64,000 bases of DNA from Candidatus Magasanikiibacteriota bacterium (GCA_963840935.1 CAWJAS010000001.1:256875-320874), one strand, 5' to 3'; numbered from the stretch's first letter, positions 4,127-29,849 are shown. Numbers and translations: made by a program. The notes: generated by a model not told the origin, from the sequence alone.

Positions 4127-7100
4127 ATGGAAAAATTTGAAAAACAATTTAAAATTCGTGCGAGCATAAAATCAATGATGATTTTTGTGTTTGTATTTGG
4201 AATTTTTGTTGTTTTTGCAAATTCGGCAAGCGCCACAAATTGGAAGCCAAATCCAAATCAATGTCCGACCACATACAACGGTCAAATTGGTAATCCGGGC
4301 GAAGTGATGTGCGGTTTGAACAGTGGAGTGGCGCATTGGTATGACATGACGACTTTAGTTGGTTTGGTACCCGCGGGTAATACAACCGTTAACACTGGTG
4401 GGGGAACATACGGTGGTTATGTGGTTGATTGCGATGCTTTTGATGCGAGCGTTCCGCGTTGCGACAACACGGGTTCTTTTTGGTGCAGTCCGGACGCTAC
4501 TTGCAACAGTGCCTACAGAAAAACAGAATGTATTGGAACAAAATGGGCTACTGATTCCGGATCTTCTAATTGCGATGTTTGTCAAGATAATAGATGGGAT
4601 TGCGACACTAATAATACTTGCGAAACCGCGGATGGGGCCAGTTGCACGGCGACTCTTGGCGGTAATAATGTTCCCGGCACAATGAATTGCGTTACCGGCG
4701 CCGGTTCATGCTCTGATTTGGGAGCTACTCTTGCCACTTGTACTTGCGTACCGGGTGTTCAATATTTTCAAACGGGCATCCAAGCCCAGTTCGCCACAAC
4801 TTCGCCTTTGCTTTGGGGCACTCAATATGGTACCGGTGATTTAATAAATATTTCCAGCAATGATTTATCAACCACCACATTCATGGTTTCTAATTCCGGC
4901 CAAGTGGGTGTCGGTTTGGCTTCTGCAATAAACACCAATGTTGCTTTTGAAGTTTCGTCCACCAATCGAGGCGTGCTTTTGCCAAGATTAACAACCACGC
5001 AGAGAAACGCGATTTTAACTCCACCGGAAAGTTTGCTTGTATATAATATTGACAATCATCAATTTGAATATTATGCCACTTCAAGCTGGCTTGCCATGGG
5101 CTCGGGAGGTGGTTCGTTTACCGAAACCGACCCGATCTGGATGACGGCAAGTGGCACTTTGACTACCGCGCATTTTGCCACCAATACTGTTTCACAATGG
5201 TCTAATGACGCCGGTTATCTTACTTCATACACCACCACTTCACCCGCCGGCATAAATGGGCAAGTGCAATTTAATGATAATGGCGCATTTGGCGCGACTA
5301 ATACTCTTGTTTGGGATAACTTACTCGGTTCCTTGTCTGTGGGTGATAATTATACTTTTCTATCAGGTTCAAGGTCTTTTGTGCAGGGCCTTTATAGTCA
5401 GGCTACCGGCACAAATTCAATTGCCATGGGGCAATACGCGCAAGCAACAAATAATTTTGCCGTAGCTATCGGCGGTTCTTCTCCGGTATCATCCGGTAAT
5501 TCTTCCATTGCTATGGGTTCTGGCGCGCACGCGTATGGTAATAGTTCAATCGCGCTCGGCAATCTTGCATCAGCGGAAAATTTATCTTCCGTCGCCATTG
5601 GTTATCAAACCAGGTCAACCGGTAATTATGCGGTCGCTATCGGTGGAAATACTAGAGCGACCGGTTTGTTCAGCGTGGCGATTGGCAATAACAGTACCTC
5701 AAGCGGAAATTCATCTTTTGTCGGCGGTTATAATAATGATTCAAGCGGTAATTATTCAGCAGTATTTGGTTCTGACAACATTAACACGGGCGGAGATTAC
5801 GCTTTTATATCCGGCGACAATAATGTAAATTCAGGTGGCCTGTATTCCGCGATTTTCGGGGCCTACAACACATCAACCGGCCAATATTCATTTATCGGCG
5901 CCGGTTTAAATAGTGTGGCGAGCGGAATTAATTCAGTTGCTTTTGGTCGAAATTTGACAGTGTCCGGTAATTATTCTTTTGGGGTTAATGCCCACGGTTC
6001 AAATTCATATACCTTATCTCAAGCTAACACAGTTGCTCTTATGGGTGGCAATGTTGGCGTGGGGACTACGACTCCGGCCTATAGGTTAACCGTTTCCGGA
6101 GATTTCGCCGTTACTGGCACAATAAGAGTGGGGAATGCTATGACCCCGGGCACTTATGGCCAACTTCTAATGTCAACCGGCACGGGAGCGGTTTGGATGA
6201 GTACCAGTTCACTTGGTTTGGGCGGGGGAGGCGTCACAGGTTCCGGCACATCAACTGAAGTCGCTTTTTGGTCCGGCACAAATTCACTTTCATCCTCAAG
6301 TTCACTTTATTGGAATAACACGAATGGCAGACTTGGTATTAACAATGCAACTCCGGAATTCGCTTTAACTATTGGAAATGACGGGGGTATTATCGCAACC
6401 GGCACAGTTGGGTCCGGCGCGACTCTTTCTACCGCTGGCGCCGGCACCCGCATGATTTGGTACCCGCGTAAAGCCGCATTCAGAGCCGGTTATGTAAATG
6501 GAACGCAGTGGAATGACGCGAACATCGGAGAATATTCCGTAGCCATGGGGAACGGTTCAAGAGCCAGCGGATATGGTGACATTGCTATTGGTACTGGTGT
6601 AGTCGCAAGCGGTGGAAATTCCGCCACGGCAATAGGCGCTCTTAATACGGCAAGCGGTGATGGGGCGTTTGCCCTTGGCCGTTCAATGACAGTATCCGGC
6701 GACTATTCTTTTGGTGTTAATGTTTCCACAACCGGTGCCACATTATCCCAAGCGAGTACCATTGCTTTAATGGGTGGCAATGTTGGTGTTGGCACAACTT
6801 CTCCATTATTCAAATTAACAATTGACGGTGGAATTTATTCCACGGGTACTTTTAATGCGGGTGAAACTTTGTCTTATTCCGGTGCTGGTACCCGCATGAT
6901 TTGGTACCCACGTAAAGCCGCGTTTAGAGCGGGTAATGTAGATAGCACACAATGGAATGATGCGAATATCGGGACTTATTCCGTTGCTTTTGGAGAAGAC
7001 ACCGAAGCGAGCGGTGACCACGGGTCAACCGCCTTCGGAACCGGTTCAATTGCGAGCGGTGATTATGGGTCCGCCGCTTTTGGCTCGTGGACAGAAGCTT

Positions 7101-10100
7101 CCGGTCAAAGCTCGGCCGCTTTTAACATAGCCACAATTGCCAGTGGTAATTATTCAACCGCTTTTGGCAACACCACTGTGGCCAGTGGCATGACGGCGAC
7201 AGCTTTTGGTAATGGTACGACCGCCAGTGGTTATATTTCCACAGTATTTGGCAATAGCATGACAGTATCCGGTGATTATTCATTTGGCGTAAATGTTGGG
7301 GCTTCAGCTTCCCCTGTGCTCTCGCAAGCAAATACTATTGCTCTTATGGGTGGGAATGTCGGCATTGGTACAACTTCGCCACAATATCGATTGACAGTCG
7401 CTGGTGATTTGGCGGTTACAGGCACAATCAGAGTGGGGGATACTATGGCTTCCGGCACTTACGGCCAGATTTTGATGTCAACCGGCACAGGAGCTACCTG
7501 GATGAGCACCAGTTCACTTGGTTTGGGCGCTGGTACTGTTACAGGTTCCGGCACATCAACCGAAATAGCTTTTTGGTCCGGCACAAATTCACTTTCATCC
7601 TCAAGTTCACTTTATTGGAATAACACAACCGGCAAGTTAGGTATAAATAATTCAAATCCTGAATTCGCTTTAACTATTGGAAACGACGGCGGTATTATCG
7701 CAACAGGAACCTATGGTAGTGGAACTATTCTTACCACAGCAGGCGCCGGCACTCGAATGATTTGGTATCCGTATGGCGCGGCTTTTAGAGCTGGCATAAT
7801 CGACGGTACTCAGTGGAACGAATTTAATATCGGACATGGTTCCGTCGCTTTTGGCGCTAACACTATTGCGAGCGGAGCCGGCTCAATGGCTGTTGGTGCA
7901 GATACAGTAGCTTCAAATGCCTCGTCTTTTGCGTCGGGTTATGGAGCTGTTGCTTCAGGTTACGTTGGTTCTTCTATCGGTTTATATACAACTTCAAGCG
8001 GACATTATGGTTCATTTTCCATAGGCGAACGAACAGTAGCAAGTGGTAATCGCGCTTTTGCTGGTGGGTATTATTCCATAGCTTCAGGCACGGCCACACT
8101 TGCTTTTGGTCAAAACGCGAATGCATTAGGTAACAATTCAGTTGCGCTTGGTCAAAATGTTACCACCACATTGTCTTCAAGTAATAATTTTGCTCTTGGC
8201 AATAATATAATAGTTAGCGGTAATTATTCATTTGGTGTGAATGTTTCGTCAACTGTCGCGACTCTCGCGCAAGCCAACACTATTGCTCTAATGGGTGGTA
8301 ATGTCGGCATCGGCACAACGAGTCCGCCGTTAAAATTAACAATAGACGCGACTGTCGGTAGTGGCGGTTCTGAAGGAATTGGAATTTTTGGCGGTAATAG
8401 CACTACTGTTGCTCTTGGAAATTATAATAGCGGGGGCACATATACCGGAGTTTTGGCATTGTATCGCTCAGATTACTGGGGGCCAACCGCGATGTTTTCT
8501 GCCGGAGGTTCCGCTTCGCTTTATGGTTTTCATATTGGTACTTCCACTATTCCATCTACTATTTCACGTTTTACTGTTGGTTCAGATTTGGAATTTGCAA
8601 TAAGCAGTGACGGGGATATTACAAGAATAAATGACGTGCCCATGTCTTGGCCGTCGTCTCAAGGGGGAGTTGGCACGATTTTACAAAATGACGGTTCGGG
8701 TAATTTGTCTTGGGAGGCGACAAGTTCACTCGGGTTAATTGATGGCGAGGGTTCCGCCGGTTTTGTTACACTTTGGAATAGCAGTACCACTTTGTCTTAT
8801 GATGGTGATGGTATGTATTGGGACGGAATGGATAATCGATTGGGTATTGGGACAACGACTCCCTTGGGGAGACTGCATATGCGTACGAATATAAGTGGAG
8901 ATGGAATTTTTTTAAGTAATGATGTAGGTAAAGTGGCTTCAAAATTGTTTCTTATTTTAGATTCCGACAGCTATCAGTCAGGTAAACTATCTCTATTACA
9001 AAATGACGTGGAAAAAGTGTCTTTAGTTGCAAAAGGCAATTCTTATTTAACCGGCGGTAATGTGGGTATTGGCACATCAACACCGGAAACAGTATTGTCT
9101 GTTGCTGTTCCGGGGAATAATGGCATTGTTTTGTATGGATCCACAAATGGCTATCAATTGGCAGCACTTGCCAGCGGAGCCGGGAATGAAACGGGTGGTC
9201 TTGTGCTTTTTACCAACAATATATCTCAACCGAGTGTTTCCATTACTGGTGGAGTTGGAGGCGCGATTACTTATTTCGGCACTTCAACCTATCGTTTTGG
9301 CATTGCCACAAGTAGTCCTTTATCAGGGTTCACTTTTGTGGTTGCCGGCACTTCATCACAGCGTTCTATTTTACCGGAAACTAATTTGACTTACACATTG
9401 GGTGATTCTTCCAAGCGTTGGAATGAGTTGTGGACCGGCACGGCAAATATTGGTACAAGCACATGGTCGCTTACCACAACCGGCGCGGACCGATTTGGAA
9501 TTTTTAGCGGTCCGAGCGGAACGGCTACGGAAACAATATCGATTTTGCAGGATTTGGGTAATGTTGGTATCAACAACATATCACCATCAAAAACTTTAGA
9601 TGTTAACGGCAGTATTAATATTCCATCAACCGACACTACCACAGATTCAGGAATAATATATATGAATAGTAGCCGTTTTATTCATTCAGTGGGCGGAACA
9701 ACGAATTTTTATGCAGGCTTAGGATCCGCAAATACAAATGCCATTTCAGATTACAATACCGGTATTGGTGGCAATGCATTGATGAATATCACATCTGGCG
9801 ATGGCGCGAATGTTGCAGTTGGTTATAACGCTGGCAGAAGCATTACCACTGGAGCATATAATGTCGGTATTGGTATAAATAATTTTTATGAAAACGGAGG
9901 CGGTATTATTGGAAACGTAGCGATTGGTCGACACACCATGTATTCCACACAAAGTAATTCCAGTACCGCCGTTGGCTACGCTGCGATGAGAAATAACACG
10001 ACCGGTGAAGGTAATGTTGCCCTAGGATATTATGGACTTTATGCCAACTCTACAGGTAATTACAATACAGCCGTTGGTTTCGAAGCTTTGGCTACAACCA

Positions 10101-12919: not shown

Positions 12920-12995
12920 TTGGTTTTGAAGAATATAAAAAACGCTTTTTTCGGCGTTTTTTGTTATATATTAGCCAAATTATTTGGGCATACTC

Positions 12996-13024
12996 TTGAC
13001 AAAAATCTAAAAATATGCTATATT
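12996..13024 (+). promoter_or_regulatory. Sigma70-like promoter (TTGACA-17-TATATT) upstream of the 13122 gene
   Basis: Consensus -35 hexamer, 17-nt spacer and a near-consensus -10. A strong SD (AAAGGAGG) lies 7 nt before the ATG. Confidence 0.55.
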
Positions 13025-13121
13025 ATGATGTTATTGTCATGATAATTTAAGGTTCATTAAAAATATTAAAATGTAACAAAATCAGTCTTAAGAGGCTGAT
13101 TTAGGAAAAAAGGAGGACGAA

Positions 13122-13637
13122 ATGTCGTTCAAGTCGATTGTTTTCTGTGTGGTGTTCACGCTCGCCATTCTTGGATGCCAGTCGAGCGCCAACTTTGAGG
13201 CGGGAGACGGAGATGATGGTTTCGAGTCGTACGTCTTCAACGCCCTGTACTTCGATATCGAGAATTCGCTGGTTTGGGAACTGGTTCCGTCGCACGAAAG
13301 CAGTTACAGCACTGCCATTTGGGCGGAAGCAGAGAAACACTGCGAGGATCTTCGGGTCGTAGGGGAGGAGGGCATTTACGAAGATTGGCGCCTTCCCACC
13401 ATCGATGAACTGCGCACACTCGTGGTCGGTTGCGACGAACCTTCGTGTCTGATCGAGGCTGGTACCGGTCCGAACGGCTGCTATTGGCCGGATGCTTTTT
13501 CCGGCGTTTGTGCCCGTTATTGGTCGTTGAGTCGGTGCGGTGAAGATAGCCGGTCGGCAGTCACATTTTCTTTTGCCAGAACGGATTGTTGGCCAGAAGA
13601 TCAGCCGGCAATCGTCCGCTGCGTCCGCGACCTCTAA
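13122..13637 (+). CDS. Short lipoprotein (171 aa) with a DUF1566/Lcl-C-terminal-like (C-type-lectin-like) domain
   Basis: Signal peptide with a lipobox (LAILGCQS). Motifs WRLPTIDELRTL, GCYWP and YWS are present, and the protein ends RCVRDL. The gene is GC-rich relative to its flanks. Confidence 0.75.
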   Translation: MSFKSIVFCVVFTLAILGCQSSANFEAGDGDDGFESYVFNALYFDIENSLVWELVPSHESSYSTAIWAEAEKHCEDLRVVGEEGIYEDWRLPTIDELRTLVVGCDEPSCLIEAGTGPNGCYWPDAFSGVCARYWSLSRCGEDSRSAVTFSFARTDCWPEDQPAIVRCVRDL

Positions 13638-13681
13638 CCATCCCGCCTCACACCCCGCTCTTTCCGCTCTTTCAACTCCCG

Positions 13682-13711
13682 CCCGCCGATATTCCATCGG
13701 CGGGTTTTTTT
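13682..13711 (+). terminator. Rho-independent terminator (cccgccgat-attcc-atcggcggg + T7)
   Basis: Perfect 9-bp stem followed by a T-run. The identical element recurs at 15405-15428. Confidence 0.7.
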
Positions 13712-13929
13712 ATCGTTAACTATTGACTTAATTCGCTAAAAATGGTATTTTAATATATTAAAAAATTCGTATTTTTATTATTCTAAGCGAAGTAAAAAAT
13801 ATAATTTTTTTTCTGCGCCTAGAATGATAATGATAGCTCGTTGAAAATATTAAAAAAACCGACACAATACTGTGCGTCCCCAAGAGGCGTTCGTGGGGGA
13901 TAAAGCATTCCCGAAAAAAGGAGTAGTTC

Positions 13930-15354: not shown

Positions 15355-15404
15355 CCAATCCCGCCCCACCCCCGCTCTTTCCGCTCTTTCAACTCCCGCC
15401 CGCC

Positions 15405-18240: not shown

Positions 18241-21200
18241 GCAATGTTATTGCCGGGCAACATTCAGGTGTGGTCGCAGGCACTTATAATATTGTTACTT
18301 CTTCGAATTCATTTATCGGAGGCGGTTCAAATAATCAAATAACAAATTCCGCATCGCGCTCGTTTATCGGTGGCGGTCAATATAATTTCGCGGATGGTTT
18401 AAATTCTTTTATTGGGGGCTACGCCAACACCACCACTGGTAATAATGCGACTGCCTTCGGGTATCAGATGCAAGTTGATGGTAATTACTCTTTTGGCATA
18501 AATGTTTCCTCGACTAATCCGGCCACAATTACAAATAATAATACTATAGCTTTAATGGGTGGGAATGTTGGAGTGGGCACCACAACGCCAGAAACAAAAT
18601 TAACCATTGATTCAACTGTAGGCGCTGGTTTATTTGGTGGAATATCTTTATCTGGCGGGGGTGCTCCAACTGCGATTTTAGGTCATGCCAATATAGTTAG
18701 TAATCATTCGGGTGTTTTAGCATTATATAACAATACCCCAGCCGAATTATTACCACCAGTATTTATTCCCGCATGGACTAAATCGGCAATATTACACGGC
18801 TTGAATATTGGTACGACATCATATTCGGGAACTGGGTTGTTAAATGTCGGTCTTACCCAACAATTCCGGGTTGATAACGATGGTGACATTGCAAGGATTA
18901 AAAATATTTCTTATGATTGGCCAGACTCTCAAGGTGCCGTTGGTACTATCTTACAAAATAACGGGGCAGGAGCATTATATTGGACTGCGACATCATCGCT
19001 CGGTTTTGTTGACACAGACACCACCACATCCCCGGCCGGTTTTGACGGGTATATTCAATTTAATGAAGACGGTGAATTCGCGGCGAGTCAGAATTTATAT
19101 TGGGCCACATCAACTGGACGATTGGGTGTTGGTGACGCATCGATAGCCGGAAGTCCGACCAATAAATTATCAATTGGCGCGACACCCAGCAGTGGTTCCG
19201 CTGACGGTATGTCTATATACGGTGATGACTTATTAACTGCCTTTGTCGGTAATTACAATTCCAGTGGTGTTTATACCGGTCGTATCGGACTTTATCGCGC
19301 CGAAGACGCTGATACTGAATTAAAAACATTCATCAGTGCCAGTGCTTCATATTTTGTCGGCGGTAATGTCGGAATCGGTGTTTCAACGACAATCCCGTCT
19401 TTGTTAACCGTTGGTTCAAATAGCGGTTTCCAAGTCAATTCTTCCGGCAATTTAACAAAAATTAACAATGTCACATATTCCTGGCCAGGATCACAAGGCG
19501 CGGCTAGCACAATTTTACAAAATGACGGTTCGGGCACATTAACTTGGGTCAATACCTCCACCCTCGGTTTCGCCACCTCTTCGCACACCCATGCCACGCT
19601 CTCACAAGGTACCGGTATCGCCGCGTTTTCATACAACGGTTCATCGGCCGCCACTGTCGGTCTGGCCACTTCGGGTGTTACTGCCGGCACTTATGGCACG
19701 GTTTCAGCAGTGCCTATCTTAGTAGTTGATACCTATGGTCGTATTACTTCGGCTTCCACATCATCAATTGCCATTTCTGCCAGTCAAATTACATCCGGGA
19801 TTCTTCCTATCGCTCGTGGTGGCACTAATTCTTCAACTATCGGCGCTGCCGGTTCGGTCCCATATTCCGATGCCACTTCATACCGTTTTACAGCCGTTGG
19901 CACCTCCGGTCAAATTCTACGCTCCAACGGGGCCGGAGCCCCAACTTGGGTTTCCACTTCAACTCTCGGCATTACTGTCACTGAAACCGATCCTGTTTTT
20001 GACGCCTTGCCGGCGGCCAAAGGTGATATATTTACCGCCACGGCCAATGATACACCATCAATTTTGTCTGTCGGTACGAATGGAAAAATATTAACAGCTT
20101 CTTCTTCCGCCACTAACGGCATAGATTGGATGACGACATCTTCTCTCATCGGCACTCTTGGCACCATGGCTTATCAAAATGCTAATAACGTAAATATTTC
20201 GGGGGGAACGATTACCAGTATAGGGGATGTTACAATTAACGAAGGTCAGCTTTATGTGCATGACAATTTATATATTACAGACGGTGATAGCGATACGGTG
20301 TCCGGCATATATTTGGGTGCCACCGAAGTCGGTCAATATTTTATAACCTCAGCCGGTACTGCCGGTCAACTTTGGTCGTCTGACGGAGATGGGCGCGGAA
20401 CATGGGTGGCGACATCTTCACTTGGTATTGCTAGCGCCGGTGGTTGGACTGATGATGGCATGGTAGTGCGATTGACCACCATTATAGACAATGTCGGCAT
20501 CGGCACAACCACACCGGCGGCTAAACTGCATGTAAATATCACAACTGGCGACGGTATCATATTAGGCTCAGGAAGCAGTGGAAGCGCAGTAGCTAAATTG
20601 TTTGCCAATGGTGACTATGGCGATGTTGGTAATATATCGTTGCATTATGGCTCAAGCCAAAAAGCTTTATTATCGGCCGACGGTGTTTCCTATCTTAATG
20701 GCGGGAATGTAGGCATTGGTACCACTTCACCGGCGGCTAAACTGCATGTAAATATCACAACTGGCGACGGTATCATATTAGGCTCAGGAAGCAGTGGAAG
20801 CGCAGTAGCTAAATTGTTTGCCAATGGTGACTATGGCGATGTTGGTAATATATCGTTGCATTATGGCTCAAGCCAAAAAGCTTTATTATCGGCCGACGGT
20901 GTTTCCTATCTTAATGGCGGGAATGTAGGCATTGGTACCACTTCACCGGCGGCTAAACTGCATGTAAATATCACAACTGGCGACGGTATCATATTAGGCT
21001 CAGGAAGCAGTGGAAGCGCAGTAGCTAAATTGTTTGCCAATGGTGACTATGGCGATGTTGGTAATATATCGTTGCATTATGGCTCAAGCCAAAAAGCTTT
21101 ATTATCGGCCGACGGTGTTTCCTATCTTAATGGCGGGAATGTCGGCATTGGTACCACTTCACCGTCATACAGCTTATCTGTTGCTGGTCATATGGCAGTT

Positions 21201-24200
21201 ACTGGAACGTTCAGAGTGGGGAATTCTCAAGATGCCGGTGCTTCAGGATATATTTTGCGATCAAATGGTTCATCGGTCGCCCCGACTTGGGTGGCCACAT
21301 CTTCGCTTGGCTTAATGAGTACTGCTCTTGCTTCCGCATACATTTGGGTAGGCAATGCTTCCGGCGTAGCAACTGCTGTTTCTATGAGCAGTGACGCTAC
21401 GATATCCAACACAGGTGCTCTAACTATTTCAGCCAATGCGGTTGGGTCAAATGAAATAATTAACAATTCAATTGCGCCGGTTGACATGGCTTCAAGTAGC
21501 GCCCCATCAGCAGTTGGAAATGTTTTAACCTATAACGGAAGTAACTTTAAATGGATTGCCACATCTTCTCTGGGAATCGCCTCTGCCGGTGGTTGGACTG
21601 ATGATGGTACGGTGGTCAGATTAACCGCAATTACAGATAGTGTCGGCATCGGCACAACCACTCCGCCATTTAAATTGGCGGTTCAAGCAGGATATAATGA
21701 TGGAATTACTTTATATAGCCCAACAGCGGTTGGGACTATTGGGATGGTTAGTATTCTTGGTGGTGGCGGTGGTCCGGCCGGAGTTTTGTTAGCAATGGAT
21801 ACTGGAGTAATAAAAACTCGTATTAGCGCCGACGCCAGCACGGATTCATATTTTGATGCTGGTGATGTCGGTATAGGTACAACTACCCCATCAAACAAAT
21901 TGCAGGTAAATGTCACTAGCAATAATGATGGCATATTATTGAGTGGCAATAGCACACTTGCTGCAAAATTATATTATGATGGTTCGAGTGGCCATATCGG
22001 ATATATGTCTTTATATGGCGGTGGAGCGGAAACCGTTAAATTATCAGCATCTGGCTATTCATATATAAATGGCGGTAATGTCGGCATCGGCACAACCACT
22101 CCGCCATTTAAATTGGCGGTTCAAGCAGGATATAATGATGGAATTACTTTATATAGCCCAACAGCGGTTGGGACTATTGGGATGGTTAGTATTCTTGGTG
22201 GTGGCGGTGGTCCGGCCGGAGTTTTGTTAGCAATGGATACTGGAGTAACAAAAATTAGAATAAGCGCTGACGCTAGTACTGATTCATATTTTAACGCTGG
22301 TGATGTCGGCATCGGCACAACAACCCCCGCCGGAAAACTGCATGTATTATCATCCGCAAGCGACGGCATATTATTAAGCGGAACAGATGATAACAAAATT
22401 GCGGCTAAACTTCATCACACTTACATGAGCGGAGCAACCGCGGGTTTGTTGTCCATGTACGATAATACAGTCCAAAAAATATATTTGAATGCCGGCGGTA
22501 TTTCGTATTTGAACGGAGGCAATGTGGGTATTGGCACTACTTCTCCTGCCTATAAATTAACTGTTGCCGGCGATTTACACGTTACAGGTACTTTAAGAGT
22601 AGGAAATAATTTTGATGCAGGTATTACCGGATACCTGTTGATGTCAAATGGCTCTTCTCTTGCACCTAGCTGGACATCAACAGCAACTTTATTTTCCTCT
22701 GCCGGTGGTTGGACTGACGATGGTACTATAGTAAGGTTGACTACATTGGGTGATAAAGTTGGAATTAATACATACAGCGCTTTTGCGCCCCTCCATGTTG
22801 GAGATACATCAAATGATGGCACTATTGTCGCAAAAGGATTACTAGGTTCTGGATACTCATTAAATTTAGATCAAGATCAACCATATTTTGTATGGAGTTC
22901 CAAGCGAGCAGCGTTAAGAGCTGGTATATCAGGGTCATCTTTAGCTTGGGATGATGCCTATGTTGGAAATTATTCTGTTGCCATGGGTTATTATTCGGCG
23001 GCAACAGGCACAGCATCAGTTGCAATCGGTGGAGCTAATATTGCCACAGCAGATTATGCAACAGCGCTTGGTTACAATATGACTGTTTCCGGCGCGCGTT
23101 CATTCGGTGTAAATGTTTCAACTACAGCCGCCACCCTCTCGCAGGCTGATACTATCGCCTTGATGGGTGGCAATGTTGGGGTTGGTAAAGTTAACCCAGA
23201 AAGAAAGCTCGATGTTAGCGGAGTGGCGCGAATTCAAAATTTTGCTTCTTTGAGCAATGTACAATATGATGCAGTCAATATTAATTATACGATGTTGGGC
23301 AACAACATCTACATGAATGAATATTCCGGTGTTCCTTATTTTGCTTATTTAAATACTGACAGCGGTGGAGCGACAGGTTATTCCGGTATGTTATTGGCTT
23401 CCGCTGGTTTTAATTTTTACGCCGATGTTTCTTCAACTGTTAAAGATGGTGTTTTGAGTGACCCAAATAAATTAATGGATTTATTATATGATGGGCAACT
23501 TATTTCATATGGCACTTATAGCGTAGGCGATTCTTTAACTGCGTCAGGCGCCGGCACCCGTATGATTTGGTTCCCAAAAAAATCCGCTTTTAGAGCGGGC
23601 ACAGCAGAAGGCACAGAATATAACGACGCGAATATTGGCAATTATTCATTTGCAGGAGGTTCTGGTAATCTTGCAAGCGGTGAATCTGCTACTGCCTTTG
23701 GAAGCAGAAATACTGCAAGTGGACAGTGGTCTTTTATCGCTGGCTCGCAAAATACCGCGTCTAATACGGCGTCCATCGCTTTGGGTCGCTCAAATAATGC
23801 CACTGGAATTTATTCTTTTACCGCTGGTTATGGTAACACTGCAAGCGGAATTTATTCCGTGGCTATTGGTAGAAGTTCAGTTGCGAGCGAAGAACACACT
23901 ACGGCTTTGGGCTATAATGCAACAGCAAGCGGTGAATATGCGACTGCTTTGGGTTATCAGAGTACCGCAAGTTTTTATGGTGCTTCTGCGTTTGGTTTTA
24001 GAAGTGTTGCTAGTAGCTTTTACTCTCTGGCTTTAGGTAACACTGTAACGTCAAGCGGATCAAACGCCGTTGCTATGGGTAGCTTTATTACTGTTTCTGG
24101 TTCTAGCTCGCTTGGTATTAATGTGTCTTCTACTGTGCCCGCAACACTTTCTCAAAATCACACTATCGCCTTAATGGGTGGGAATGTCGGTGTTGGCACA

Positions 24201-27200
24201 GTGACACCAAGTGAACAGTTGGCTGTTTGGGGTGATATGCGTGTCGCGACTACCACAGGAACTGCGCCCGCATTATATGTTGACGTATCGGCCAATGCGA
24301 TTGGTGTTCGAATGATAGCGCCACAAGAAGCTTTGCATGTTGAAGGCAATATTAGAATTCCTGGAACAGGTGCTTCAGACGGATATATTAAAATGGATGC
24401 TAATCGATATATCCATAGTTATGGGGGCACAACAAACTTTTTTGCCGGTGTTAATGCCGGTGGGCTGTCAATGACCGGTGATTACAACACAGGTGTTGGA
24501 GCTAGTTCATTAAATAATATTACATCCGGTCAAAACAATGTAGCTTTGGGTTACTACGCCTCACGAGATTTGCAAACCGGTTCAGATAATGTTGCGGTTG
24601 GAGTAAATGCGCTTTTTAATGCTACGGGTTATAGTGCCAATGTCGCCGTTGGTAAAGATGCTATGGCGGAAACTACTGCGAATTCAAGCACCGCAGTTGG
24701 TTATGAGGCGCTCAGTCGTAATACCAGTGGCGAAGGCTTGGTCGCGGTTGGTTATCAAGCTCTTACAACCAATTCCACAGGTAATTACAATTCGGCTCTT
24801 GGTTATCAAGCGCTTTATTCCAATACAACCGGTTTATATAACACGGCCTTTGGCTCTCAAACTCTTTATGATAATGTTAGCGCCCATGCCAATACCGCTT
24901 TGGGTTGGGGTGCGCTGGCGAACACAACGAACGCATCAAATACTGCGGTTGGTTTTGGAGCTTTAATTACTGATACAACTGGTTATAGTAATACTGCCGT
25001 GGGTTTGTACGCTCTAAGATATGTTTCTTCGGGCAGTTATAACGTTGCTATTGGGCTTGATGCGGGCGATAATTCTGTTTTTAATACCGAAAGTTATAAT
25101 ACTTTGATTGGAGCAAGAGCGGATGTTTCTGCTGATGCCATATCAAATTCAACCGCAATTGGCTATGACGCTGTGGTTGGTTCTAGCAACAGGGTCGTTC
25201 TTGGAAATGGCGATGTTACTTCTGTTTATATGTCCGATGATGGTGGAGCAAGTGTCTACTTCACGCCGGCTAGCACTCTTTATACTACTGCGTTATGTTG
25301 GGATAATTCCGGCCCGTCGAGTATATATGATTGTAACGGTTCGGCGACCGACTACATGGAATACTACGCGGTTGACAACGATGTTGAATCCGGGGATTTG
25401 GTTGTAATCGGAGATACTTATGTTTCAACAACCGAAGGTTTTACAATAGCAAAATTAGAAAAAGCGACAGGCCCATACGACCCGAAATTATTAGGTGTTA
25501 TTTCAATAAAAGAATGGGCTGGCGATTTCAATTCAATCGGTCAAAATAGTATTTACGAATCAGACAATCCGCACGTGCTTGCTCTTTCAGGTCGTATTCC
25601 CGTAAAGGTTACCACAGATAATGGTCCTATTTATAAAGGCGACAAGCTTACTTCATCTGATCGCCCTGGTTATGCCATGAAAGCCACCGAAGACGGTCCG
25701 ACTATTGGTATTGCTTTGGCAGATTTTACAGGTTCGGCCACAGGAACGGTTATGGTATTTATTGATCTTGGGTGGAATAATACAATTTATCGCGGATTAA
25801 CAATAAATGAAAGCGACTCGGAAATAACATTCAAAACACCAACTTTGGCTTTCACAACCACCACATATTTTACCTCTTCCGTCTCATCCACCCCCGACTC
25901 CCGCGCTTTCATCTTTAACGCTCTTAACTTTGATACCACATCAACCGACAAATACATATTATCTCTCCGTTCTAACAACAACCCGGTCTTCTCTGTCTCA
26001 TCAAACGGCGATGTTCATTCCTCCGGCAACATGTACGCCGCTTCGGCTGTCCTCGGTACTTCCACCAACCCGGGTGACTTGGCAGAAAAGGTAGACATAA
26101 ACCCCTCGGAAACCGTGGAAGCAGGGGATGTGATGATGGTTGACCCGGCATCACCCGACAGATACCAAAAATCAAATCAAGCATACGAACCGACTGTGGC
26201 CGGCGTTATCTCCACGAACCCAACCATCATTGTCGGCAACGGCAAAACCGACCAAACCGCTCCTCTTGCCATGGTCGGCAGGGTACCGGTCAAATTCAGT
26301 GAAGAAAATGGCGCAATACAAAGAGGTGACCTCCTTGTTTCCGCGAGTACCCCGGGCTATGCCATGAAATATGACCCGATTCTCGACAACTCCAGAAAAG
26401 TGGTCGGCATCATCGGTATTGCTCTTGATAATTCCATGGAATCAACCAATGGCAAAGTAATGACTCTCATCAGAACCGGTTGGGTCTACAACAAAACCCA
26501 AGCCGTCTCCAACCTTGAACAACAAGTTTACTATGTTGCTTCAAGCGCCGGTGTTGACCTATCGGTTGACCCTGAACTCATGAATATTGAAACTACTAGT
26601 GAAGGCTCTATCACCTACAACAGCGATAGCAACCTTAGTCTCAACAATTTCTCCATCACCAATGTCAAATCAATAATATCAACCAACAATAAATGGACCA
26701 TAGACGAGAACGGCATATTAATTTCTAAAATCATTACCGCTGAAGGCGCTGAAAAGAATATCTATGGCATGACTTCAGAATCTGCAGAGATTACGCTATC
26801 GGGAACCGGAACTTTGCAAATGGGTGAAATATTTATTTCTTTTGCGACCGATACAAAATCAATTATTGATGAATTAGAACCGATTAAAGTGAGTGTCACC
26901 TTAACTTCCATAGACGCAAAAGGAATCGCGGTTATAGAAAAATCCAATGAAGGATTTAAAGTTAAGGAATTGGATAATGGGACATCAAACGCCACATTTG
27001 ATTGGATTGTGATTGCCAAACGGCGTGCAATAATTAACGAATCAAGCAGTGAACCTGAAACTATTGATACTAAATCATCATCCGGTTCGCCGGTTGATGA
27101 GAGTTCTGTTGATGAGGAATTAACTCAAGCAGGAGAGGAAGACGAAACGACGGACTCGTCTTCTTCTCCTGCCGGTGATTCTTTCGAGGAACCGTTGGCT

Positions 27201-27299
27201 GAAGAACCGCCTGCAGACGAAGAACCATCTCTGGAAGAAACTCTGCCAGCCCCTGAACCTTCGGCAGAAGAGTCAACCCCTGAAGAATTTACCCCATAA
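18237..27299 (+). CDS. Main segment (3020 aa) of giant fibre/adhesin-like gene 2
   Basis: Contains Hep_Hag-like repeats, phage-fibre motifs (GVTAGTYGTVSAVPILVVDTYGRITSAS...ILPIARGGTN), perfect tandem repeats, GAGTRMIWFPKKSAFRAG, the C-terminal module shared with gene 1 and an acidic Pro/Glu-rich tail. Confidence 0.75.
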   Translation: MSNVIAGQHSGVVAGTYNIVTSSNSFIGGGSNNQITNSASRSFIGGGQYNFADGLNSFIGGYANTTTGNNATAFGYQMQVDGNYSFGINVSSTNPATITNNNTIALMGGNVGVGTTTPETKLTIDSTVGAGLFGGISLSGGGAPTAILGHANIVSNHSGVLALYNNTPAELLPPVFIPAWTKSAILHGLNIGTTSYSGTGLLNVGLTQQFRVDNDGDIARIKNISYDWPDSQGAVGTILQNNGAGALYWTATSSLGFVDTDTTTSPAGFDGYIQFNEDGEFAASQNLYWATSTGRLGVGDASIAGSPTNKLSIGATPSSGSADGMSIYGDDLLTAFVGNYNSSGVYTGRIGLYRAEDADTELKTFISASASYFVGGNVGIGVSTTIPSLLTVGSNSGFQVNSSGNLTKINNVTYSWPGSQGAASTILQNDGSGTLTWVNTSTLGFATSSHTHATLSQGTGIAAFSYNGSSAATVGLATSGVTAGTYGTVSAVPILVVDTYGRITSASTSSIAISASQITSGILPIARGGTNSSTIGAAGSVPYSDATSYRFTAVGTSGQILRSNGAGAPTWVSTSTLGITVTETDPVFDALPAAKGDIFTATANDTPSILSVGTNGKILTASSSATNGIDWMTTSSLIGTLGTMAYQNANNVNISGGTITSIGDVTINEGQLYVHDNLYITDGDSDTVSGIYLGATEVGQYFITSAGTAGQLWSSDGDGRGTWVATSSLGIASAGGWTDDGMVVRLTTIIDNVGIGTTTPAAKLHVNITTGDGIILGSGSSGSAVAKLFANGDYGDVGNISLHYGSSQKALLSADGVSYLNGGNVGIGTTSPAAKLHVNITTGDGIILGSGSSGSAVAKLFANGDYGDVGNISLHYGSSQKALLSADGVSYLNGGNVGIGTTSPAAKLHVNITTGDGIILGSGSSGSAVAKLFANGDYGDVGNISLHYGSSQKALLSADGVSYLNGGNVGIGTTSPSYSLSVAGHMAVTGTFRVGNSQDAGASGYILRSNGSSVAPTWVATSSLGLMSTALASAYIWVGNASGVATAVSMSSDATISNTGALTISANAVGSNEIINNSIAPVDMASSSAPSAVGNVLTYNGSNFKWIATSSLGIASAGGWTDDGTVVRLTAITDSVGIGTTTPPFKLAVQAGYNDGITLYSPTAVGTIGMVSILGGGGGPAGVLLAMDTGVIKTRISADASTDSYFDAGDVGIGTTTPSNKLQVNVTSNNDGILLSGNSTLAAKLYYDGSSGHIGYMSLYGGGAETVKLSASGYSYINGGNVGIGTTTPPFKLAVQAGYNDGITLYSPTAVGTIGMVSILGGGGGPAGVLLAMDTGVTKIRISADASTDSYFNAGDVGIGTTTPAGKLHVLSSASDGILLSGTDDNKIAAKLHHTYMSGATAGLLSMYDNTVQKIYLNAGGISYLNGGNVGIGTTSPAYKLTVAGDLHVTGTLRVGNNFDAGITGYLLMSNGSSLAPSWTSTATLFSSAGGWTDDGTIVRLTTLGDKVGINTYSAFAPLHVGDTSNDGTIVAKGLLGSGYSLNLDQDQPYFVWSSKRAALRAGISGSSLAWDDAYVGNYSVAMGYYSAATGTASVAIGGANIATADYATALGYNMTVSGARSFGVNVSTTAATLSQADTIALMGGNVGVGKVNPERKLDVSGVARIQNFASLSNVQYDAVNINYTMLGNNIYMNEYSGVPYFAYLNTDSGGATGYSGMLLASAGFNFYADVSSTVKDGVLSDPNKLMDLLYDGQLISYGTYSVGDSLTASGAGTRMIWFPKKSAFRAGTAEGTEYNDANIGNYSFAGGSGNLASGESATAFGSRNTASGQWSFIAGSQNTASNTASIALGRSNNATGIYSFTAGYGNTASGIYSVAIGRSSVASEEHTTALGYNATASGEYATALGYQSTASFYGASAFGFRSVASSFYSLALGNTVTSSGSNAVAMGSFITVSGSSSLGINVSSTVPATLSQNHTIALMGGNVGVGTVTPSEQLAVWGDMRVATTTGTAPALYVDVSANAIGVRMIAPQEALHVEGNIRIPGTGASDGYIKMDANRYIHSYGGTTNFFAGVNAGGLSMTGDYNTGVGASSLNNITSGQNNVALGYYASRDLQTGSDNVAVGVNALFNATGYSANVAVGKDAMAETTANSSTAVGYEALSRNTSGEGLVAVGYQALTTNSTGNYNSALGYQALYSNTTGLYNTAFGSQTLYDNVSAHANTALGWGALANTTNASNTAVGFGALITDTTGYSNTAVGLYALRYVSSGSYNVAIGLDAGDNSVFNTESYNTLIGARADVSADAISNSTAIGYDAVVGSSNRVVLGNGDVTSVYMSDDGGASVYFTPASTLYTTALCWDNSGPSSIYDCNGSATDYMEYYAVDNDVESGDLVVIGDTYVSTTEGFTIAKLEKATGPYDPKLLGVISIKEWAGDFNSIGQNSIYESDNPHVLALSGRIPVKVTTDNGPIYKGDKLTSSDRPGYAMKATEDGPTIGIALADFTGSATGTVMVFIDLGWNNTIYRGLTINESDSEITFKTPTLAFTTTTYFTSSVSSTPDSRAFIFNALNFDTTSTDKYILSLRSNNNPVFSVSSNGDVHSSGNMYAASAVLGTSTNPGDLAEKVDINPSETVEAGDVMMVDPASPDRYQKSNQAYEPTVAGVISTNPTIIVGNGKTDQTAPLAMVGRVPVKFSEENGAIQRGDLLVSASTPGYAMKYDPILDNSRKVVGIIGIALDNSMESTNGKVMTLIRTGWVYNKTQAVSNLEQQVYYVASSAGVDLSVDPELMNIETTSEGSITYNSDSNLSLNNFSITNVKSIISTNNKWTIDENGILISKIITAEGAEKNIYGMTSESAEITLSGTGTLQMGEIFISFATDTKSIIDELEPIKVSVTLTSIDAKGIAVIEKSNEGFKVKELDNGTSNATFDWIVIAKRRAIINESSSEPETIDTKSSSGSPVDESSVDEELTQAGEEDETTDSSSSPAGDSFEEPLAEEPPADEEPSLEETLPAPEPSAEESTPEEFTP
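20513..21169 (+). repeat. Perfect tandem repeat, 3 x 219 bp (73-aa unit), inside giant gene 2
   Basis: Three nucleotide-identical copies were seen. Each encodes AAKLHVNITTGDGIILGSGSSGSAVAKLFANGDYGDVGNISLHYGSSQKALLSADGVSYLNGGNVGIGTTSP. Confidence 0.8.
21643..22255 (+). repeat. Two ~438-bp tandem units with long identical stretches inside giant gene 2
   Basis: GIGTTTPPFKLAVQAGYNDGITLYSPTAVGTIGMVSILGGGGGPAGVLLAMDTGV... is repeated starting at 21643 and 22081. Confidence 0.65.
25875..26795 (+). repeat. About 930-bp block nearly identical to 11546-12475 in giant gene 1
   Basis: See the partner entry. A more diverged tandem copy of the same protein module lies just upstream, at about 25380-25800 (GDLVVIGDTYVS...GRIPVKVTTDNGPIYKGDKLTSSDRPGYAMKA...VMVFIDLGWNN). 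Confidence 0.75.
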
Positions 27300-27391: not shown

Positions 27392-27420
27392 TTGACAATT
27401 GTCATTAAATGTGCTATAAT
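27392..27420 (+). promoter_or_regulatory. Consensus sigma70 promoter (TTGACA-17-TATAAT) upstream of the 27509 gene
   Basis: Perfect -35 and -10 hexamers with a 17-nt spacer. The SD (AGGAGG) precedes the ATG. Confidence 0.6.
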
Positions 27421-27508: not shown

Positions 27509-28153
27509 ATGTCTCAGGAGGATACCATGAAAAAAGTATTTTTGGTCCTGTTCTTTTCTGGCGTAATCGTTTGGATTGCCGGTTGCAATCAAATGTCATC
27601 AACTTTTGACTGCGATGAATGCGCCGATACGGACACTGAATCAGATGAGGATTCGGATAGCGATTCCGAGACCGATTCCGACGAAGATTCCGATGATACT
27701 TATGTCAGCGATGGCATGTATTTCACGGGTGGTGATATTGCTTGGCAAGTTGCACCGCCGGATGGTGTGCTCACCCTTGCAGATGCTGTTTATTACTGTG
27801 ATAGTCTAACACTTGGTGACCATGATGATTGGCGGATTCCGACTATTTCGGAGTTGCGATCAATTGTTGTTGGTTGCCCTTCGATTGAAACCGCAGGCGA
27901 GTGTGCCATCACGGACGAGCAAACATCAGTTACCGAGATGGAAAACTGTGATGGTTGTGAATTTCTGTCCGGCCCTGGTCTTGAAGGGTGCTACTGGCCA
28001 AGTAGTTTGACCGGCGTGTGTGGTGAATATTGGAGTTGGACTACTGCGACGGGGACCGATGCTGGCTCGATTTTTTATGAAATAAATTTCAATTTTGCCA
28101 GTGTGATAACAGGCGCTCAGTCGCCTCACGTACGCTGTGTCCGCGATCTCTAA
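27509..28153 (+). CDS. Short lipoprotein (214 aa) with an acidic D/E/S-rich linker and a DUF1566-like C-terminal domain
   Basis: Lipobox WIAGCNQ, an acidic low-complexity stretch, WRIPTISELRSIVVGC, CYWP, YWS, and the protein ends VRCVRDL. Confidence 0.75.
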   Translation: MSQEDTMKKVFLVLFFSGVIVWIAGCNQMSSTFDCDECADTDTESDEDSDSDSETDSDEDSDDTYVSDGMYFTGGDIAWQVAPPDGVLTLADAVYYCDSLTLGDHDDWRIPTISELRSIVVGCPSIETAGECAITDEQTSVTEMENCDGCEFLSGPGLEGCYWPSSLTGVCGEYWSWTTATGTDAGSIFYEINFNFASVITGAQSPHVRCVRDL

Positions 28154-28228
28154 TCGACTCACCCCCTCATATTCATGAGGGAAAAATACCTGCCTCAAAC
28201 CCTGCTCTTTAATCAAACCGTTCATTTA

Positions 28229-28267
28229 CCCGCCATGTCGCATGACCTCTGGCGGGTCTTTTTTTTA
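28229..28267 (+). terminator. Rho-independent terminator (cccgcca...tggcggg + T-run), duplicated at 29925
   Basis: Hairpin followed by TCTTTTTTTT. About 85 bp of 3' UTR is identical between the 27509 and 28377 genes. Confidence 0.65.
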
Positions 28268-28275
28268 TAAAAATA

Positions 28276-28304
28276 TTGACAAAATAAAGTATTTTTGTTA
28301 TAAT
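28276..28304 (+). promoter_or_regulatory. Consensus sigma70 promoter (TTGACA-17-TATAAT) upstream of the 28377 gene
   Basis: Perfect hexamers with a 17-nt spacer. Confidence 0.6.
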
Positions 28305-28376: not shown

Positions 28377-29849
28377 ATGGCAAGAAATATTGTTATTTTG
28401 TGTGGTTTTGTTTTTATATTCGTTTTCGGATGCGACCACATGGCGTCAGATATCGACTATGTTCCCGATTCGGACACTTCATCTGACGCGGATTCGGATT
28501 CTGATTCGGATACGGAAACAGAAAGCGAGGTTTGTACTCTGGTTTCCGGAGCCATACAAAAAGGGCCTTTTGTGTCTGATTCAACCCTTACCGTTTCCAT
28601 GCTTAACGCTACCGGAGCTCCGACCGGGCTTTTCTATTCCACGACGACCGAGGACGACCTGGGCACCTTCAATGTGGTCGTCCAGACCACAGGACCGTGT
28701 GAATTGGTTGCAAATGGTCTCTACTATAATGAGGTTGTGGGCAAGCTCTCAGGAGAGCCCATCACCTTGCGCGCTATCTACGAGATTTTCAATGGCGACT
28801 CGCAGAAGGCCTATTCAAATATATTTACCCACATGAGCTCGGGTCTTGCCAAGAAGCGTCTTTCTGAGGGTGACACGGTGGCCGAAGCGATTGTCTATGC
28901 TGAGAACAAGCTTTTCAACGAGCTTGGTATCCTGCACCCCTCCGGTGCCCTTGAGGGCAATGGTGCGGGGATGGACTTGATCGGAGCTAACTCGCCAGAT
29001 AATCAGTACATTGTGGCTTTGTCATGCATCGTCGCTAAGTCAGCTGAACTTCTGGCTGAGGATTCGACCGAGGTGGATGACAAATTGCAAATGCTTCTGA
29101 ATGACATCAGAAGTCAGGTGCAGGCAAGCGAAGCCATCAATCCGGAATACAAGCAGTATCTTCGAGATGGCGAAACCGCTCTTAATCCGGCAAAGGACTG
29201 CATCGAGAAATTGACTAGCTACTTGTACAATAAAACCGGCGAAGTCATGGGAATACCCGACCCGGATACTTGTTCTGACAATGATGGCGACGGTACTCCT
29301 AATTCTGCAGATCCGGACATCGACGGCGACGGCGTTCCCAATGAAGAGGACGAAGCACCCTACAACGCAAATGTTGGTGCCGGCATGTACTTCGACAGTG
29401 AGAGTGGTTACGCTTGGCAGTTAGTGTCGCCGGCCGAATATTATACATGGGCAGACGCGCAATCCTATTGCGAAGACCTTCTTGTTGGCGGGCACGACGA
29501 TTGGCGGATGCCAAGTATCAGCGAAATGCGTTCTCTTATTAGAGGATGTGCTTTAACTGAGACTAGTGGTGCGTGTGGGCTTACAGATGAATGCAACTAC
29601 CAATTGTGCTTTAATAATGCTTGTTATGTTGGTTGTTCCGGCCTTCAAGGACCCGGGATTGGTGGTTGCTATTGGCCGGATACTATGCAAGGTGAATGCG
29701 GAGCATATTGGTCGGCAACTAACAACCTAACTTTTCCTTATCTGTATTTTATTCCTATTTTTTCGCATGCATATATCGTTGCCGACCCGATTTCAACTTC
29801 GGAAACGTCTTTCGTAACGCACCTTATCCGTTGCGTCCGCGACATGTAA
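28377..29849 (+). CDS. Long lipoprotein (490 aa): paralogous N-domain, TSP3-like repeats and a DUF1566-like C-terminal domain
   Basis: Signal peptide with a lipobox (VFGCDH). The N-domain is paralogous to the 13930 gene. Repeats DNDGDGTPNSADPDIDGDGVPNEEDE, WRMPSISEMRSL, CYWP and YWS are present, and the protein ends RCVRDM. Confidence 0.75.
   Translation: MARNIVILCGFVFIFVFGCDHMASDIDYVPDSDTSSDADSDSDSDTETESEVCTLVSGAIQKGPFVSDSTLTVSMLNATGAPTGLFYSTTTEDDLGTFNVVVQTTGPCELVANGLYYNEVVGKLSGEPITLRAIYEIFNGDSQKAYSNIFTHMSSGLAKKRLSEGDTVAEAIVYAENKLFNELGILHPSGALEGNGAGMDLIGANSPDNQYIVALSCIVAKSAELLAEDSTEVDDKLQMLLNDIRSQVQASEAINPEYKQYLRDGETALNPAKDCIEKLTSYLYNKTGEVMGIPDPDTCSDNDGDGTPNSADPDIDGDGVPNEEDEAPYNANVGAGMYFDSESGYAWQLVSPAEYYTWADAQSYCEDLLVGGHDDWRMPSISEMRSLIRGCALTETSGACGLTDECNYQLCFNNACYVGCSGLQGPGIGGCYWPDTMQGECGAYWSATNNLTFPYLYFIPIFSHAYIVADPISTSETSFVTHLIRCVRDM

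Follow-up and report, generated by a model that had tools for sequence, protein, structure and literature searches.

Gene content of the island

The stretch of DNA analysed here (the window; 64,000 nt, GCA_963840935.1 CAWJAS010000001.1:256875-320874), from a Candidatus Magasanikiibacteriota bacterium, carries a putative adhesin island on its plus strand (1205-29849), between the thioredoxin gene and leuS. Four phage-tail-fibre-like genes are interleaved there with four genes for lipoproteins containing an Lcl_C domain (PF07603, formerly DUF1566), and the flanks are made up of housekeeping genes (IF-2, thioredoxin, the leucyl-tRNA synthetase LeuRS, ComEC). The nearest related loci belong to metagenome-assembled genomes (MAGs) of Candidatus Magasanikbacteria (LeuRS identity 77-83%), which bears out the initial suggestion of an organism like those of the candidate phyla radiation (CPR); judged from its sequence, the host is a Magasanikbacteria-like member of the Patescibacteria. 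The following open reading frames (ORFs) were called under genetic code table 11; S1 and S2 denote the short Lcl_C lipoproteins, L1 and L2 the long ones with TSP3 repeats and Lcl_C, and up345 and up624 the short fibre paralogs upstream.

1205-2242, plus strand: up345, short fibre paralog; N-terminal domain of type A, resembling the N-domain of mosaic adhesive trimer (MAT) fibres (MAT_N-like), and Cys-rich C-terminal tip of type X
2246-4120, plus strand: up624, short fibre paralog; Cys-rich N-domain of type B (as in fibre 1) and tip of type X (as in up345)
4127-12919, plus strand: fibre 1, giant, 2930 amino acids, intact ORF
13122-13637, plus strand: S1, short lipoprotein, 171 amino acids; lipobox, then Lcl_C; GC content 55% against a background of ~40%
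13930-15354, plus strand: L1, long lipoprotein, 474 amino acids; lipobox, pedestal (beta-sandwich and helical bundle), two TSP3-like repeats, Lcl_C
15554-17434, plus strand: fibre 2, first fragment, 626 amino acids; signal peptide and MAT_N-like N-domain of type A, ending at an in-frame TAA
17677-18240, plus strand: fibre 2, middle fragment; lies in a second frame, open from about 17519
18237-27299, plus strand: fibre 2, main fragment in a third frame, 3020 amino acids, lacking its own signal peptide
27509-28153, plus strand: S2, short lipoprotein, 214 amino acids; acidic Asp/Ser linker, then Lcl_C (Pfam)
28377-29849, plus strand: L2, long lipoprotein, 490 amino acids; lipobox and acidic linker, pedestal, two TSP3 repeats, Cys-rich Lcl_C

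The first-pass annotation had described a tandem module in which a giant fibre gene, a short Lcl_C lipoprotein gene and a long TSP3-Lcl_C lipoprotein gene follow each other twice; this order is indeed present at the positions given, and the ORFs of fibre 1, S1, L1, S2 and L2 were confirmed. The start assigned to the block, 4127, was wrong, as two more fibre paralogs precede fibre 1 (the first with a probable start at the ATG at 1211); the block thus begins outside the earlier coordinates and its two "modules" are asymmetric. Nor is the second giant gene, given as 15554-27299, a single ORF. For S2, an ATG at 27527 (MKKVFL...IAGC) is a more likely start than 27509. A search of the searchable literature library found no paper describing such an arrangement of fibres and lipoproteins.

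Fibres built from shared modules

All four pairings of two N-terminal and two C-terminal modules are present among the fibres: N-A with C-X in up345, N-B with C-X in up624, N-B with C-Y in fibre 1 and N-A with C-Y in fibre 2. The N-terminus of up345 is 32% identical to that of fibre 2, while its C-terminal 161 amino acids share 50% identity with up624, which in turn is 45% identical to residues 10-328 of fibre 1. The two giants have non-homologous N-termini, repeats that are 35-40% identical and last ~470 amino acids that are 76% identical. Searches of Pfam, NCBIfam and PHROG with up624 returned 0 matches. Both short fibres end in a common Cys-rich domain of ~150 amino acids (1800-2242 in up345, 3650-4120 in up624; ...WIAEGPPGYTA.SNDC...CCK), for which Pfam, NCBIfam, PHROG and PDB sequence searches were all empty; it is a candidate for a new binding domain at fibre tips. 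Further features of the two giant fibres are as follows.

11096-11284, plus strand: Peptidase_S74 segment (endosialidase-type intramolecular chaperone) of fibre 1, residues 2324-2386 (Pfam)
11741-12163, plus strand: domain of fibre 1 resembling the phi29 gp12 C-terminal fragment (auto-chaperone or phage decoration-protein fold), from the predicted fold
17432-17434, plus strand: in-frame TAA in fibre 2 (three-frame translation)
near 17505-17517, plus strand: frameshift in fibre 2 (three-frame translation and comparison with an intact ortholog, see below)
near 18216-18217, plus strand: 2-nt insertion in fibre 2, causing the second frame change
20490-21164, plus strand: tandem repeat in fibre 2, unit of 216 nt (72 amino acids), 3.1 near-perfect copies of 97-98% identity
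about 25350-25800, plus strand: second, diverged gp12-like copy in fibre 2
about 26070-26492, plus strand: gp12-like domain of fibre 2, counterpart of the fibre 1 domain

Fibre 1 starts with a signal peptide and the Cys-rich N-domain B, followed by YadA-head-like and tail-spike-like repeats, the S74 intramolecular chaperone, the gp12-like domain, an Ig-like domain and a Pro/Thr-rich tail. Pfam recognises YadA_head in eight stretches (E-value 2.6e-33) and Peptidase_S74 (7.6e-9), and the PHROG match is to a tail spike (8e-44). YadA_head is found by Pfam in fibre 2 as well, S74 is not. The placement of S74 is unusual as it is internal, with ~540 residues following it. An AlphaFold2 model of the conserved C-terminal module of the fibres contains two confident domains; the module has no Pfam match, and a profile search against PDB sequences was empty, so that its relation to gp12 is visible by fold only. 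The C-terminal fragment of phi29 gp12 acts as an auto-chaperone and is cleaved off once the trimer has assembled. The proposal that the fibre C-terminus docks the lipoproteins therefore finds no support in the predicted fold, which would rather make the module a device for folding and trimerisation.

The gene of fibre 2 is interrupted by three lesions within 800 bp, while the other 9 kb of this otherwise open ~11.7-kb gene are free of stops. In its ortholog on a related metagenome contig (L018; protein identity 72-79%), a single frame of 1046 codons stays open (0 stops) across all three sites. As the long third fragment lacks a signal peptide, there are two possibilities for fibre 2: a pseudogene of very recent origin, or local assembly errors in a repeat-rich gene. 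An alternative genetic code was considered and rejected, since recoding would leave the two frameshifts among the three lesions unexplained. The tandem repeat at 20490-21164 is likely a site where length varies by recombination.

Comparison with known fibres

The closest known counterparts appear to be the MAT fibres of Bdellovibrio bacteriovorus (PMC10769870), for which a beta-rich domain, conserved and ~130 amino acids long, directly after the signal peptide, members with and without S74 (motif SDxxxK) and a mosaic of swapped terminal modules have been described. In the island, too, a signal peptide precedes an N-domain, which in fibre 2 and up345 may be of the beta-rich MAT kind, the shaft is long and phage-like, a fibre with S74 (SDDNLK in fibre 1, conforming to SDxxxK) adjoins one without it (fibre 2), and terminal modules are exchanged among the four paralogs; both organisms, moreover, have a lifestyle that requires the recognition of other bacteria. 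The NCBIfam profile Bdello_MAT_N matches fibre 2 (4e-6, 26.7 bits), up345 (1.3e-4) and the L018 ortholog (4.4e-6), all under the 60-bit cut-off and covering only positions 3-82 of 162, and a second fibre of the related locus L002 marginally (E-value 0.037). Fibre 1 gives no match; instead it shares its different, Cys-rich N-domain with up624. Apart from this N-domain, the giants differ from MAT fibres in being about three times longer, in the internal position of S74, which is followed by the gp12-like domain, the Ig-like domain and a low-complexity tail, in the lectin fold being carried by separate lipoproteins and not by the fibre tip, and in the host being a CPR bacterium, presumed monoderm.

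The shaft and chaperones also recall phage tail spikes and fibres that carry auto-chaperones at the C-terminus, such as the K1F endosialidase and T5 pb1 with S74, or phi29 gp12; in the island, however, the genes are chromosomal, have Sec signal peptides and lie near no virion genes, and fibre 1 joins both chaperone types in one, putatively self-cleaving, protein. That the fibres are leftover tail fibres of a prophage or tailocin is accordingly scarcely credible, the tail-spike PHROG match, S74 and the gp12-like domain notwithstanding: the flanks (IF-2, thioredoxin, LeuRS, ComEC) hold no other phage gene, the fibres carry Sec signal peptides, several genomes share the locus, and scans of viral contigs with the L protein and the fibre C-module found no relatives.

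With trimeric autotransporter adhesins such as YadA and Ata the fibres share the YadA_head repeats and the fibre-like build. This identity was rejected, as the C-termini consist of an Ig-like domain and a low-complexity tail and no YadA_anchor beta-barrel is present; the host, moreover, should have no outer membrane. Inspection of the sequences and Pfam revealed no LPXTG motif, transmembrane segment or beta-barrel anchor in the fibres.

The Lcl_C lipoproteins

The assignment of the four smaller proteins as DUF1566 lipoproteins was correct. All exceed the PF07603 gathering cut-off of 34.9 bits (S1 52, L1 56.3, S2 44.3 and L2 46.5 bits; E-values 1e-13 for S1, 4.9e-15 for L1 and 2.5e-11 for S2), and in each a Cys closes the N-terminal hydrophobic segment (ILGC in S1, FTAC in L1, IAGC in S2, VFGC in L2). 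By inspection of the sequences, this lipobox Cys (Cys19) is invariant among 13 homologs, and lipobox cysteines are conserved in a set of 15. The TSP3 repeats likewise proved real: a family profile matches the TSP3 regions of thrombospondin, COMP and OmpA in the PDB (6e-12 to 5e-9), whereas L2 alone matches Pfam TSP_3 under the cut-off (E-value 0.0015). As stated at the outset, L1 and L2 are paralogous over their full length (50% identity over 443 amino acids, E-value 3e-157) and S1 and S2 only in the C-terminal domain (33.5%). The Lcl_C domains are 32-40% identical in every S/L pairing and give no signal that an S gene arose from the adjoining L gene.

In L2, the pedestal spans residues 54-287, the TSP3 repeats ~297-334 and the Cys-rich Lcl_C domain 339-489. 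The AlphaFold2 model (predicted local distance difference test 90.5, predicted template modelling score 0.82) divides the pedestal into a beta-sandwich (54-148) and a helical bundle (149-287); its best match in a Foldseek search of the PDB is 9i0d, the non-heme domain of Geobacter PgcA (E-value 4e-4), followed by transthyretin-like sandwiches. The pedestal domain (28536-29237 in L2) belongs to no Pfam family. A search with it gave 2561 cluster representatives (clusters at 50% identity), in proteins of 243-2207 amino acids, where it is nearly always close to the N-terminus; homologs from a separate search bear varied C-terminal domains (FG-GAP/VCBS, LRR, LamG, FGE-sulfatase, Fib_succ_major). 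Taken together, these sequences suggest that the pedestal is a general mount presenting variable binding heads. A metagenome scan with the L alignment was dominated by the generic TSP3 pattern DxDIDGD and contained no true relatives. An exact look-up of L2 was empty, although the protein collection does include an identical protein (P0001).

The Lcl_C head connects these proteins with Legionella Lcl, whose C-terminal domain is a C-type-lectin-like trimer that binds glycosaminoglycans and can drive trimer formation (PMC11162425). As in Lcl and other DUF1566 proteins the domain is C-terminal, and its role is probably glycan recognition, trimerisation or both. Unlike Lcl, which is secreted by the type II secretion system, the island proteins are lipid-anchored; they have no collagen GXY repeats (neither by Pfam nor in the sequences), the pedestal and TSP3 repeats taking the place of the stalk, and the head is Cys-rich, whereas the C-terminal domain of Lcl is without disulfides. 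PgcA is lipid-anchored as well, with the non-heme domain first after the anchor (PMC11520253; PDB 9i0d), and the order of lipid anchor, first structural domain, flexible linker and functional modules is the same in both; the match is moderate (target TM-score 0.43, identity 17%), the domain has no known function in PgcA itself, and the cargo differs, being a lectin domain here and haem domains in PgcA.

The GC content of the lipoprotein genes exceeds the ~40% background, at 47-49% in S2, L1 and L2 and 55% in S1. For S1, no homolog above 36% identity was found among 5.8 billion proteins, and its composition suggests a recent foreign origin; its high GC content also gives rise to a spurious antisense ORF of 198 amino acids (13101-13697). 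Elsewhere in the window, a YkuD L,D-transpeptidase (35563-36330) carries bacterial TSP3 repeats, so TSP3 linkers serve other envelope proteins of the genome too.

Transcription signals and 3' elements

Promoters and terminators were called as sigma-70-like consensus matches and as hairpins with a T run, respectively.

12935-12964, plus strand: terminator-like hairpin after fibre 1
12996-13024, plus strand: S1 promoter, TTGACA-17-TATATT with TG
13640-13714, plus strand: 3' element after S1; C-rich unstructured tract, 10-bp GC hairpin and T run
15358-15431, plus strand: copy of the S1 3' element after L1, 97% identity over 75 nt
15487-15515, plus strand: promoter-like site of fibre 2
27392-27420, plus strand: S2 promoter, 12/12, with TG
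28184-28266, plus strand: 83-nt 3' element with terminator after S2
28276-28304, plus strand: L2 promoter, 12/12, with TG
29879-29961, plus strand: copy of the S2 3' element after L2, 100% identity over 83 nt

It had been proposed that each lipoprotein gene has a near-consensus promoter, a strong Shine-Dalgarno sequence and a terminator of its own. For terminators this applies throughout, as GC hairpins with T runs follow S1, L1, S2 and L2. Good promoters precede S2 and L2 (12/12 matches, extended -10) and S1 (11/12); fibre 2 reaches 10/12 and L1 only 9/12. Strong AGGAGG-like Shine-Dalgarno sequences are found for S1, L1 and, if it starts at 27527, S2. Each of the 199-292-nt intergenic gaps contains a promoter-like site along with a terminator-like hairpin; short gaps free of internal signals, as expected in an operon, are confined to up345, up624 and fibre 1, which are separated by 3 and 6 nt with no terminator between them and are apparently co-transcribed. 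From these signals, each lipoprotein gene looks like a separate transcription unit and not part of an operon with the fibre.

The only link between S and L within each block are the shared 3' elements. They recur in relatives: the S1 element is 95-98% identical to DNA after the L1 ortholog in L018 (3850-3914), the S2 element 86-95% to DNA after the L gene of the Magasanikbacteria MAG locus L001 (11295-11398). A consensus tract, CCyGCCyCAmACCCyGCTCTTT, is followed by the strong terminator hairpin, and the identity across species (86-98%) exceeds that of the preceding proteins (50-85%); an Rfam search of the entire window returned 0 families.

One conceivable role of these elements would be that of a homing signal, a diversity-generating retroelement having the lipoproteins as its targets. 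The literature lists DUF1566 among the target classes, such retroelements are common in CPR bacteria, and a GC-rich hairpin with a conserved tract stands immediately 3' of each lipoprotein gene. The idea is largely refuted, however, and exceedingly improbable: the scanned ORFs of the 64-kb window include no reverse transcriptase, no Lcl_C 3' coding region has a template-repeat partner (no template/variable repeat pair), and a strain variant of L2 (P0071) differs throughout with only two changes in the last ~45 residues, that is, without hypervariability at the C-terminus.

Age of the duplication

The repeated order is, on the sequence evidence, a duplication and not due to chance, because the homology is highly significant. 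In a neighbour-joining tree, L1 groups with its 85% identical ortholog of L018 and L2 with the proteins of other genomes, including L031, whose L gene lies upstream of leuS as L2 does; as L1 and L2 fall into separate groupings of species, their split predates these species. Between the blocks, DNA identity is at most ~67% (blastn, windowed identity) outside one patch near the 3' ends of the fibre genes:

11538-12350 (fibre 1) versus 25867-26679 (fibre 2), plus strand: DNA patch of ~0.8 kb, 91-99% identical

Set against that background, the patch is probably a conversion tract, suggesting that gene conversion has recently affected the 3' ends of the fibre genes.

The locus in related genomes

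The first-pass annotation had suggested looking for the three-gene order in related genomes; what recurs there, in four relatives, is a fibre gene immediately followed by an L gene. For comparison, related loci were labelled L001, L002, L018 and L024-L032. L001 has a giant fibre, an L gene and then LeuRS and ComEC; L002 a fibre, an L gene and a second fibre; L018 the end of a fibre, a full-length L-type gene (La) where S1 would stand, the ortholog of L1 (Lb, 85%) and that of fibre 2. An L gene thus follows a fibre in L001, L002 and L018 as it does twice in the window. S genes were found in no relative, nor in the 460 bp that precede the L gene of L031, and the S1 slot of L018 is occupied by an L-type gene; the short lipoprotein is not a member of a conserved unit. 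Moreover, the first-pass annotation had itself named fibres without adjacent lipoproteins, or the reverse, as evidence against a unit, and both were found. Six Patescibacteria loci (L024, L025, L026, L027, L028 and L029/L030) contain the same fibre C-module (45-65% identity) with no Lcl_C neighbour; L024, which has RCC1, GIY-YIG, LeuRS and ComEC, lies at the same leuS-comEC position and is as close by LeuRS as L001 (identity 76% compared to 77%), and in L029/L030 a ribonucleotide reductase adjoins the fibre. Conversely, L homologs of 43-54% identity are encoded on Myxococcota and Deltaproteobacteria contigs of 62-68% GC without such fibres, one of them next to a 1254-amino-acid protein with CarboxypepD_reg and Lcl_C domains. 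By these comparisons, the conserved core in the clade is a fibre followed by an L-type lipoprotein, not three genes, and even this core is facultative.

Some of the other Patescibacteria fibres are flanked by CarboxypepD_reg (transthyretin-like) proteins (L026 1174-4206; L027 180-1160; L028 382-1032 and 7525-9465), and in Myxococcota (L032 4201-7965) the L gene comes after a large protein with CarboxypepD_reg and Lcl_C. As the pedestal of L begins with the same kind of sandwich, a wider association may exist.

The same comparisons bear on a tighter relation, in which the fibres and lipoproteins form an obligate attachment apparatus, L and S being membrane-docking or assembly partners of the adjoining fibre (for example, a trimeric Lcl_C head fixing the trimeric fibre to the envelope by its proximal end). 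The recurrence of L directly after the fibre in the window, L001, L002 and L018 would fit, as would the capacity of Lcl_C to drive trimer formation, the lack of an LPXTG motif, transmembrane segment or beta-barrel anchor in the fibres, and the lack of a known partner of the MAT N-domain at the cell surface (PMC10769870). Yet in L024-L030 no Lcl_C gene adjoins the homologous fibres, L genes exist in other phyla in the absence of fibres, the transcription signals speak for separate units, the giants have unrelated N-domains despite the 50% identity of L1 and L2, no lipoprotein is paired with up345 or up624, and the S genes are not conserved; such an apparatus is therefore unlikely. More specifically, the lectin lipoproteins might be the missing docking partners of MAT-type fibres, a trimeric Lcl_C head on its lipid-anchored pedestal gripping the trimeric fibre at its proximal end, or by one of its glycans, at the envelope of a bacterium that lacks an outer membrane, with each pair a matched set of anchor and fibre; this is very doubtful. 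If true, this would hint at how MAT fibres stay attached in Bdellovibrio.

At the other extreme, fibres and lipoproteins may have no functional relation at all, the lipoproteins being horizontally acquired glycan binders that serve the cell's own envelope or nutrient capture, adjacent to the fibres only because the locus tolerates insertions and duplications. Their elevated GC content, their identity to proteins of GC-rich Myxococcota and Deltaproteobacteria and the variable content of the locus in relatives (RCC1, GIY-YIG, AbiEii toxin-antitoxin genes) speak in favour; but the adjacency has been kept across species whose L proteins have diverged by 15-50%, and both kinds of genes encode predicted surface binders, which makes this explanation rather unlikely.

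A probable variable adhesin island

The reading preferred here, to which a probability of roughly 0.55 may be assigned, is that of a variable adhesin island with facultative linkage, in which two independent kinds of binders contribute to attachment to host cells. The order of the genes is old, uneven, partly broken and loosely conserved, and looks like such an island rather than a fixed three-gene machine. The attachment apparatus envisaged in the first-pass annotation is thus retained in its adhesive role, which is reasonable, and abandoned as a fixed unit in view of the missing S genes in relatives, the facultative linkage and the apparently separate transcription units.

In the proposed scenario, the fibres would work like Bdellovibrio MAT fibres: exported by a Sec signal peptide, they would have their N-domain proximal to the cell, followed by a presumably trimeric shaft of repeats and by C-terminal modules for folding and trimerisation, S74 in fibre 1 and the gp12-like domain in both giants, the terminal modules having been shuffled among the four genes. 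The long lipoproteins would be anchored by a lipid at the N-terminal Cys, raised on the pedestal of transthyretin-like sandwich and helical bundle, hinged by two Ca-binding TSP3 repeats and tipped by the Cys-rich, C-type-lectin-like head. Fibres might bind glycans or other surface features of the host cell at long range and the lectin lipoproteins at the membrane, both in the same process, without an obligatory complex. The repeated order could go back to an old duplication within an island prone to recombination, with gene conversion, the swapping of modules, acquisition of the short lipoproteins and decay of fibre 2 as later events.

Several points weigh against this interpretation. Among clade genomes that have L, it stands directly after a fibre in 5/5 resolvable cases, so a tighter functional tie is possible; the six loci without an Lcl_C neighbour mostly lie at contig ends or in fragmented assemblies, where a more distant lipoprotein gene may exist. 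The likeness to MAT fibres is diminished by the partial, sub-threshold Bdello_MAT_N matches and by the absence of that domain from fibre 1 and up624, as well as by the internal instead of terminal position of S74 in fibre 1. Trimeric state and surface display are carried over from homologs, and ligand type and cooperation are likewise inferred.

To our knowledge, little beyond type IV pili is known about how CPR episymbionts recognise and hold their hosts. The locus suggests that a Magasanikbacteria-like lineage shares a phage-derived, module-swapping fibre design with the predator Bdellovibrio, and that its lectin lipoproteins belong to a family common to Myxococcota and Deltaproteobacteria. 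As a fixed three-gene machine is not supported, its value lies mainly in a list of parts and not in a new system: concrete candidates for binding studies are the Lcl_C heads, the Cys-rich tip of the two short fibres and the fibre shafts, and the locus brings to light a lipoprotein pedestal domain that is as yet unnamed and has many members (about 2,500 clusters at 50% identity).

Other observations in the window

Downstream of the island, leuS (30018-32585) contains three in-frame copies of a GC-rich repeat of ~84 nt (30725-30808, 31169-31252 and 32048-32131), which encode peptides of ~28 residues such as VIARSEAPKQSNGIASSPATHVPRNDK. The LeuRS of L024 lacks them at the corresponding positions, L031 has them, and in L001 they are different; the repeat has the appearance of a mobile element inserted in frame within an essential gene. 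Further downstream, a UvrB-like ORF (45651-46967) has only 438 amino acids, comprising the N-part of the helicase and the UvrB interaction domain, and may be truncated or split; two unannotated ORFs lie on the reverse strand between it and uvrA.

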